Assembly (NCBI RefSeq): GCF_044324875.1
Contig: NZ_CP172185.1
DNA: 64,000 nt
Direction: 5' to 3' (one strand)
From: Escherichia coli
Lineage (GTDB): Bacteria > Pseudomonadota > Gammaproteobacteria > Enterobacterales > Enterobacteriaceae
Positions 33,001 to 36,000 of this stretch are shown here, piece by piece. A program made the position numbers. Each line of letters opens with the position of its first letter. The first letter of the stretch is position 1.

Positions 33001-36000
33001 TATCGAAGATAAAACCAGGATCTCCATCATATATTTCTTTTAATGCGCTGAAGATCATTTCCTTGTTATTGATATCATGAGTATTCTCTACTACATTTTC
33101 ATGGATGATGGTTTGGCCGACTTTTTTGTTTTCATCGTTCGTAGGTGATTTTATTGGTTCTTGATTATAGATACCACTAGTAATATCGGCTGTATCATTG
33201 GAGTCAATAGCACCCTCATTACCACTAACAACGATACTACCATCAGTAAATTCAGCATTATTTATATCATCATGAGCCTTCTCAACTATGTTCTCATTAA
33301 TGATAGTACGGACGAGTTCTTTGTCTTTATAGCTCGCAAGTAATTTTATTGGTTCTTGGTTATCGATACCAATAGTAATATAGTCTGTATCATTGGAATC
33401 AATATTAATATAAGTAACTGAGGAATTATTAATATTAAATCTATCAGGATTGTCGTTTACTCGCATGGCGTTTTTTATAAGCTCAAGCAAATGTTTAATA
33501 CAGGTGCTTATTCCTTCCTTACCATTAAAAAGGTTTTTGAACTCTTGTACTAATCCATTAACTTCATCATTGTTATTTTCATTGATGGATTCTGGGTAAG
33601 CTGCGCTGGTATTGTTGATTGAAATAGATGGTAGCATGATTTTATTCCATGTTGATTGATTTGTTACAAATATATATTACCTAATAAAATAGACTATCAA
33701 AAAACGCTCATTTATTTAGACCCTATCTTTAATTTGAGTGTATGAGCGCACAATAGCCAGGGTGGTTTGAGTATCCTGGTAATTCAGAAAAGTAAACTCT
33801 TTGAGAAAGACGAGCAGAACGCCTGAAAATATGCCTTTCCCTTCAGGTTTGTCTGTGGATGCCACTTAATGATTTGAAAGGGCAAGCTGCCATCAGGCTG
33901 TTTGCAAAACTCAGGAGGCAAGCAATGAGGAAACTACTTTCGGTGAAGTGGGGGAGTTAAAGTCACCTGCATAGCAGGTGACTTTATCCAGGCGAACGCG
34001 TTATCAGAACGCGTAGTTAAAGTTAGTACCGAACAGCCAGGCTTTACCTTCAGACTCGAACTGGTATGGGCCTTCGTTAATTTTCACGCTCTGACCGTGC
34101 ATATAAGAAACACCAACATCGACTGAAGCATCTTTATTAAATGCGTAAGTCGTACCTGCACTCAGCCAGAAACGGTCCTGGTCCGGAATGGAGATAGAAC
34201 GATTCTGTGCCGGAACTGGGCTGTCATCAAAGGCGATACCGGTACGGAAGGTCCAGTTATCATCGTAGTAATAAGTGGTTCCCAACGCGATGCGGTAAGC
34301 ATCTTTAAAGCCTTCATGTTTCTGGAACAGCGTGTCGCCACTCGTTGAGGTCGCTTTCAGCTGCTGGAACTGACTCCAGCTGGTGTAAGCCAGGCTATAG
34401 TGAATCGCCCACTGCGGATCAACACGGTTATAACCCGACACTTCCCACATTTCAGGCAGGTTCAGCGTCAGATAACCCGATTGCGTTGCGCCACCTGTCG
34501 CGGTAGGTATTGGTAAACCGTAGTTATTAAACGCACGATTAAGATCGCTGCTGTAGTTACCTTTGAAGTCAATTTTCACTTCAGAACGGTAGGTCAGTGC
34601 ATAGCGGTTATTTTTATCCAGTTCATACAGGATACCGGCGTTCCAGCCAAAGCCCCACTGGTTACCGTTCAGATGAGCGATTTTGGTATTACTGTCGATA
34701 CCGTTGGCGGTAGCTGCCAATGCTTGCCCTTGAGGAGTCTTCCCGGCAGGAGATTGCATGATCTGACCGGCAACCAGCTGCCCCAGATCGCCTGCGAAAC
34801 GTTCAATCTTCGCGCGAGCGTAGACGGCGTTGAAACCAAGACCAAAGCTCCATGCATTATTTAAGCGATACGCACCGCTTAAGTTCAGGTTCATGGTTTC
34901 AAGGTCGGTTGTACCCCCGACAGAGCCGCCTGCATAAGTATCGTTAAACTCTGTTGCCAGGCCATAGTTAGAGGTAATAGAAGCGCCCCAACCAAATTGG
35001 TCGTTAATCGGCGCAACAAAGTGCATGTTCGGAACCCATGCCGTAGGCGCGATGTTATCGGCTTTCAGGCTACGACCAGATGGAGACGTTCCGCTGATAT
35101 TTACATCCGGATCAATATAAACCGCACCCGCAGAAAATGTCGGGCGGTCAAACATGGTAATCAATGCGGGGTTACGGCTAACGTTACCTGCATCATCGGC
35201 AATTGCGCCTTCCCCTGAATAAGCCCGGCCCAGGCCAGAGGAAGAAAATTCGTTTAACTGAAAGCCTGCCGACCAGGCCTGGGTGGAGATAAGTGCCACT
35301 GCGACTGCGAGAGCAGACTTTGTAAACAGGGTTTTCTGGCTCATGACCATAACCTCAATGATTTATTTTTATACAAACTATGTTACGTGCTGTAACAGGA
35401 GCGCGAAGTGTAGGGTCTGAGGTACATCTTAGAAATCAGACCAGTGGCGAGAGTATAGGTCGGACCAGCTGGAATGTTGCAAGTATGTTTCTATCTTTTT
35501 TCAAATATGATCTAAGAAACGCGATCCAGCTGGCAAAATTTGGAGGTGGCGCACTCATGGATTCGGGTGAATTTTGTTTTAGATCATTTTTAAGTGTGAT
35601 TTCGGTCACTTATCCGATTTTGCAGAATTAACAACTGGAGCAGCACTTTCCGGAAGCGTAAAATATCCACAACGTTTATCTGGCACCTTGGGTGCACATA
35701 CAGAGGAAATCAACGATGAGTAAATGTAGTGCTGATGAAACCCCGGTTTGCTGCTGTATGGATGTTGGCACCATTATGGACAACTCCGACTGCACCGCGT
35801 CTTACAGCCGCGTGTTTGCAAAACGCGCAGAAGCAGAACAAACGCTGGCGGCGCTGACTGAAAAAGCCCGTAGCGTGGAATCCGAACCGTGCAAAATCAC
35901 CCCGACTTTCACTGAAGAGTCTGACGGTGTGCGCCTGGATATCGATTTCACTTTTGCCTGCGAAGCTGAAATGCTGATCTTCCAGCTGGGTCTGCGTTAA

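Follow-up and report, generated by a model that had tools for sequence, protein, structure and literature searches.

The chromosomal gene icaT, called yfdF in Escherichia coli, belongs to the MxiE regulon of Shigella (PMC9241512). In S. flexneri, the type III secretion apparatus secretes the encoded protein without the aid of chaperones via the N-terminus, with the secretion signal comprising the first ~20 residues (PMC9241512). H-NS silences the gene, and MxiE/IpgC activate it through an upstream MxiE box, an element that is needed for the MxiE-dependent activation of yfdF; H-NS silencing has been demonstrated for the E. coli gene too, and E. coli that do not carry the virulence plasmid of Shigella lack both MxiE and IpgC (PMC9769918). 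With regard to its distribution, icaT is missing from phylogroup B2, and every examined strain of phylogroups D and E had an 'internal addition' that was absent in A and B1 (PMC9241512). The authors of that study consider icaT a likely fossil gene, and they characterized the ISfinder match behind the 'T' of IcaT as 'low homology' (PMC9241512).

In these experiments, protein production and secretion were studied with S. flexneri icaT, and activation by MxiE/IpgC as well as silencing by H-NS with K-12 yfdF. Here, we analyzed yfdF in a window of E. coli DNA, that is, the whole stretch of 64,000 nucleotides from contig NZ_CP172185.1. The window allele carries two diverged tandem units, unlike icaT of S. 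flexneri 2457T, which at 1059 nt contains one, and shares its two-unit architecture and its locus with the icaT alleles of phylogroups D and E, for example that of O157:H7. Secretion of the two-unit protein is a putative property. A further system for comparison is deletion between direct repeats by slippage or unequal recombination, a general mechanism that in yfdF is read from the junctions only. Since the long allele is common and the difference in length has been described in print before (PMC9241512), its occurrence is known and ordinary. As to its origin, we hold it highly probable that the long allele reflects an old, ancestral two-unit state, and that the K-12 form would have arisen from it by deletion between the repeats.

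The yfdF locus and its AT-rich island

The interval singled out by the earlier note is covered by a single long open reading frame (ORF), which runs on the minus strand from 33637 to 32390, is intact and encodes 415 aa. Its flanks, fadL and mlaA, define the position of yfdF in the annotations of the K-12 lineage and of E. coli strain 135. The latter strain is 100% identical to the window sequence, and its protein WP_086795495.1 ('hypothetical protein') is 100% identical to the product of the window ORF. Outside of indels, the ORF shares 94.8% nucleotide identity (1053 aligned nt) with yfdF of the K-12 lineage, which is annotated with 1059 nt and 352 aa. Because of the synteny and this degree of identity, the 415-aa ORF is identified at the sequence level as yfdF, named icaT in Shigella, and the gene name proposed in the earlier note is thus borne out. 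The locus contains the following features:

31456-32211, plus strand: mlaA, neighbour of yfdF
32221..32252, minus strand: terminator-like hairpin AAAAAAGGTGAGTTTTGTGACTCACCTTTTTT, downstream of yfdF and facing mlaA (terminator scan; kept at the empty site)
32253..33994, no strand assigned: AT-rich island of ~1.74 kb, containing yfdF and its promoter only (GC profile, empty-site comparison)
32390..33637, minus strand: yfdF/icaT coding sequence, two-unit (long) allele, 415 aa (ORF map, synteny, identity to K-12)
33694..33710, minus strand: MxiE box TGAGCGTTTTTTGATAG, 73 nt upstream of the ATG (upstream sequence read; Table S2 match)
34004-35350, minus strand: fadL, neighbour of yfdF

The island is inserted between the stop codon of fadL and the terminator common to fadL and mlaA, and its GC content of 31-39% differs from the ~50% of the flanks. 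A site without the island is seen at locus positions 498-558 of strain E166, where the stop codons of fadL and mlaA are 61 nt apart, as compared to 1,792 nt in the window. When the 5,426 complete E. coli genomes were searched with a query spanning both flanks, this empty site was found in ~1,150. Relative to it, ~8 nt (TTAATAAG) have been replaced by the yfdF island, and a hairpin is located within the island at about 33959-33985, directly past the fadL stop codon.

The MxiE box of the window agrees in both sequence and distance with the experimentally validated one of S. flexneri yfdF (Table S2, PMC9769918). A search with the MxiE-box consensus allowing up to three mismatches returned no match, the actual box having four mismatches to the consensus, and neither mxiE nor ipgC was found near yfdF within this chromosomal window. 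K-12 YfdF (b2345, 352 aa) resembles the window gene in its fadL-mlaA locus, the MxiE box at -73 and the AT-rich island, and the two proteins have identical N-termini over the first 57 residues. In an alignment of 20 proteins from E. coli and Shigella, including S. flexneri and S. boydii, residues 1-12, 14 and 16-27 are invariant.

Two diverged units within the reading frame

A direct-repeat search of the window allele revealed a 136-nt direct repeat with 80% identity, 33074-33209 matching 33269-33404 at a spacing of 195 nt. The two units are arranged head-to-tail and in-frame, one spacing amounting to 65 codons, and the ORF is kept open. The units, and the segment that distinguishes the window from K-12, are located as follows:

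33266..33433, minus strand: repeat unit 1, aa 69-124, INNSSVTYINIDSNDTDYITIGIDNQEPIKLLASYKDKELVRTIINENIVEKAHDD, 56 codons; the unit retained in K-12-type one-unit alleles
33074..33265, minus strand: repeat unit 2, aa 125-188, INNAEFTDGSIVVSGNEGAIDSNDTADITSGIYNQEPIKSPTNDENKKVGQTIIHENVVENTHD, 64 codons; its body is retained in the rare LR14-type allele
33083..33277, minus strand: 195-nt segment (65 codons) missing from K-12-type alleles (global alignment of the window with K-12)

Local nucleotide alignment of one unit with the other yielded a score of 55, as compared to 8.2 +/- 1.0 for 1000 shuffles (z about 46). At the protein level, the cores IDSNDTDYITIGIDNQEPIK...EKAHD and IDSNDTADITSGIYNQEPIK...ENTHD share 58% identity over 45 aa (BLASTP with composition adjustment, E=1e-14), and both units are bounded by INN at the start and HD at the end. 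Clear homology is limited to ~45-52 of the 65 codons in each period, and no alignment is obtained between the head of unit 1 and that of unit 2 (AEFTDGSIVVSGNEGA, the first ~16-19 residues). The repeat escaped Tandem Repeats Finder, even when the minimum score was set to 30, because there are only two copies and these have diverged. The repeat in yfdF is real, as confirmed by these comparisons. Two in-frame units of ~65 codons at 33148-33537 had been proposed in the earlier note. The two units and their 195-nt spacing hold, with the restriction that only part of each 65-codon period is clearly homologous. The interval has to be corrected: the repeats lie at about 33074-33433, such that the earlier coordinates were ~100 nt too far toward the 5' end of the gene, leaving out ~74 nt at the end of unit 2 while including ~104 unrepeated nt upstream.

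Alignment with K-12 yfdF, a check that the earlier note had suggested, revealed one unit in K-12 rather than the same two. The alignment contains two gaps, one of 195 nt and one of 6 nt. K-12 yfdF lacks exactly 195 nt and has an additional 6 nt near its 3' end; the window allele accordingly has 65 further codons, representing the second repeat unit, and two codons fewer near the C-terminus. The net difference is 63 aa, in agreement with the excess of about 63 aa over the 352-aa K-12 protein that had been claimed. The exact ends of the 195-nt segment can slide within (A/G)CTCATGAT, a stretch common to the 3' ends of the units. The K-12 sequence tracks unit 1 as far as GAGAAG-ACTCATGAT, where it passes into ATCAATAAC..., the sequence that trails unit 2 in the long alleles, and therefore the junction falls in the short stretch common to the 3' ends of the two units. 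The same junction is present in the alleles of O111:H8, 23CRST025, CFIAFB and CPww7.

Allele diversity and the direction of the length change

We surveyed the copy number across strains, which the earlier note had also recommended, in 5,426 complete E. coli genomes; the phylogroups of the surveyed genomes were taken solely from the literature. The whole of yfdF was matched in 4,294 genomes. Two-unit alleles, defined by at least 80% coverage of the 195-nt segment, were found in 1,235 genomes and one-unit alleles, having only a partial cross-match to this segment, in about 3,050, whereas 1,140 genomes had no match to the segment and lack the gene. These unit counts rest on the 195-nt segment, as an 80-nt query for the K-12 junction was confounded by two-unit alleles cross-matching parts of it. 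The long allele is accordingly present in about a quarter of the finished E. coli genomes.

The long alleles span 1245-1293 nt and diverge pairwise by up to ~10%. The 195-nt segment of the window is 80-85% identical to that of O157, O169:H41 and other long alleles, and it is matched at 95% identity or more in 536 genomes. The most length-variable part of the gene is the head of unit 2 together with an Asp-Ile run directly before NQEP. In the window, the head of unit 2 reads SIVVSGNEGA...ITSGIY, as opposed to the more common IIVSGIDDRSDIG...ITFDIDIE, the nucleotide identity in this region being 77-82%. The Asp-Ile run, which aligns to ~33170-33200, is missing in the window and reads DIDIDNQ in O157; other versions are DIDIENQ, DIDIDIENQ and, in GF4-3 (430 aa), DIDIDIDIENQ. 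Judged by its sequence, this variation looks like slippage of a short repeat. Compared to strain 1424KP, the window allele is 100% identical over nt 1-372 of the gene, i.e. through unit 1, and 79-89% identical afterwards; compared to UID2309, it is 94.6% identical at the 5' end, 100% from the core of unit 2 through nt 900 of the gene, and 99.7% beyond. Because the identity to these two strains changes along the gene, the alleles clearly appear to be mosaic, pointing to recombination within yfdF.

In the earlier note, the two units were read as the result of a duplication by which the protein became longer than that of K-12. Two tandem, in-frame copies are indeed present, but the copies are old (80% identity, dS 0.35) and the direction of the change is most likely the reverse, such that this reading appears to be backwards. 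According to it, a K-12-like one-unit gene would be ancestral, and the lineage of the window would have gained a unit by a 195-nt in-frame tandem duplication. Such a gain, which we judge improbable, would accommodate the presence of one unit in K-12 and two in the window, the majority held by one-unit alleles (about 3,050 as compared to 1,235 genomes), the INN and HD ends expected of a simple tandem duplication, and the term 'addition' chosen for the extra segment in PMC9241512. A recent duplication would, however, have nearly identical copies, whereas the two units share 80% of their nucleotides and 58% of their residues and are separated by a dS of 0.35 and a dN of 0.21, an estimate based on only ~27 synonymous sites. 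Among orthologous alleles, dS is at most 0.165-0.176, with a median of 0.08-0.09. Since the divergence between the units is about twice that of the deepest allele split, the duplication is old. Moreover, the K-12 unit has a dS of 0.08 to unit 1 and of 0.29 to unit 2, and under a gain this would demand that unit 2 alone evolved several times faster at silent sites.

The relationships among the alleles likewise argue against a gain, as the two-unit class is the more diverse one and the short alleles sit within it. In neighbour-joining trees of four gene segments, the short alleles are scattered among the long ones, a placement that carries less weight than it would on a clean tree given that the alleles are mosaic through recombination. 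K-12-type short alleles also come very close to individual long alleles: the short allele of O111:H8 has a single difference to the long allele of CP52E in the first 360 nt, and it is 98.2% identical to VTB97420v. In E. coli phylogenies, phylogroups D and E are usually shown diverging earlier than A and B1. The D and E strains examined in PMC9241512 all have two units.

A deletion from a two-unit allele is documented in strain LR14. Its one-unit allele (1083 nt, locus 1268-2350) has kept the body of unit 2 and not unit 1, and it equals the two-unit allele of JNEC-KY204 (locus 674-1960) minus 204 nt, the two being otherwise 100% identical. Both ends of the 204-nt gap lie within TCCAATGATACAGAC, a 15-nt microhomology that the units share at their 5' end. 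The LR14-type junction occurs in only four complete genomes. As read from these sequences, LR14 is direct evidence for deletion between the repeats as a route from two-unit to one-unit alleles. Together, the old duplication, the position of the short alleles among the long ones and the deletion in LR14 are the reasons to regard the K-12 allele as a secondary deletion.

When seeking an outgroup for yfdF, a HMMER search of 1.84 billion representative proteins yielded close relatives and fragments and nothing else, and 100,044 species-representative genomes contained no match to a degenerate-codon pattern built on the invariant GNDYLSLGYYDQD. The sequence comparison thus argues within E. coli, without an outgroup to root the change, and the case against a single-unit ancestor is strong, though not absolute. 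According to this comparison, the two-unit form is most likely ancestral in E. coli.

For the deletion scenario, we propose the following course of events. An old in-frame tandem duplication within yfdF would have given rise to two units, now diverged and comprising 56 and 64 codons. Units 1 and 2 could then misalign, and a crossover or replication slip in their common 3' ACTCATGAT would remove exactly one 195-nt period, retaining unit 1 and the sequence trailing unit 2, as in K-12. In a second event elsewhere, a crossover in the 15-nt identity at the 5' ends of the units would have removed 204 nt and kept unit 2, yielding the LR14 type. These features resemble direct-repeat deletion as known from slippage or unequal recombination: one period is lost with the frame kept, the junctions lie in 9-nt and 15-nt identities, and independent events cut at different points. 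The repeat, the allele counts, both junctions and the placement of short among long alleles are observed; that the K-12 type represents a loss, and that slippage or recombination was at work, is what we infer from the comparison of sequences. As for the K-12-type junction, either a single origin followed by spread through recombination or several origins are conceivable.

With the two-unit form as the probable ancestor, yfdF of K-12 is best regarded as derived by deletion, and K-12 should not serve as the reference architecture for YfdF.

Constraint, character and annotation of yfdF

A different explanation is that the length variation is functional, with copy number and the variable unit 2 tuning effector activity or host recognition under selection. 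The type III secretion of IcaT in Shigella (PMC9241512) would suit this idea, as would the location of the greatest length variability in unit 2 and its head, including the Asp-Ile run, and the origin of one-unit alleles on at least two occasions. We nevertheless consider it very unlikely. The ratio pN/pS is 0.47-0.75 in every segment, both units included, giving no signal of diversifying selection; E. coli is without MxiE/IpgC and the gene is H-NS-silenced (PMC9769918); and the gene is a likely fossil according to its authors (PMC9241512). In addition, yfdF is often inactivated. The O157:H7 allele has a premature stop resulting in 343 aa, unlike the intact window allele, and we found an internal stop in yfdF of CPww7, a frameshift in that of strain 100248, IS1 insertions in BL21(DE3) and 2017.06.04CC, and an ISEc20 insertion in WCHEC025970. 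Such frequent inactivation fits weak selection. Neither the pN/pS values per segment nor the inactivated alleles gave a sign that copy number matters for function, and it appears correspondingly doubtful, to the point of being hardly credible, that one-unit and two-unit IcaT differ in activity or recognition through selection on a modular host-interaction region. Neutral length variation, caused by misalignment of two diverged direct repeats, is the simplest reading. In these terms, the yfdF locus offers a small and clear-cut case of a weakly constrained, acquired gene in which deletion between diverged direct repeats has recurred.

Finally, the units might owe their similarity to low complexity or skewed composition in an AT-rich gene (31-39% GC; rich in Asn, Asp and Ile), or else to an assembly error. 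This notion would find a hint in the blank Tandem Repeats Finder output but is refuted by an alignment score 46 standard deviations above shuffles, the composition-adjusted BLASTP match (E=1e-14) and the two-unit structure in 1,235 independently finished genomes, leaving it a negligible chance.

With respect to its relatives, no meaningful family was found for YfdF by Pfam, NCBIfam, PADLOC and PDB sequence searches. Homology of IcaT to transposases was likewise considered and rejected, as no transposase family was hit in Pfam/NCBIfam (E<=1) and no relative in the PDB (E<=0.1). To our knowledge, no biochemical activity has been described for the IcaT/YfdF protein. An AlphaFold2 model computed from the 20-sequence alignment was too poor for a fold comparison (mean pLDDT 39, pTM 0.23); it draws unit 1 as strand-strand-strand-helix and unit 2 as disordered, details of an unusable model to which we give no weight. 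A match was obtained to phrog_29678 (PHROGs, function unknown), which covers aa 77-341 of the protein (window 32393-33637) with E=2e-145. Possibly, a copy of the chromosomal yfdF entered the PHROGs library via a prophage region with too generous boundaries; in two compared loci, intS, the integrase gene of CPS-53, is located a few kb from yfdF. We conclude that yfdF is an orphan gene, AT-rich, horizontally acquired and weakly constrained.

Annotation of the gene is inconsistent. In RefSeq, the name 'protein YfdF' is given only to the 352-aa form, and intact two-unit alleles are labelled 'hypothetical protein'. The two-unit ORF of JNEC-KY204, which is intact and encodes 428 aa, is annotated there as a partial yfdF pseudogene, and the name icaT is used in one annotation record.
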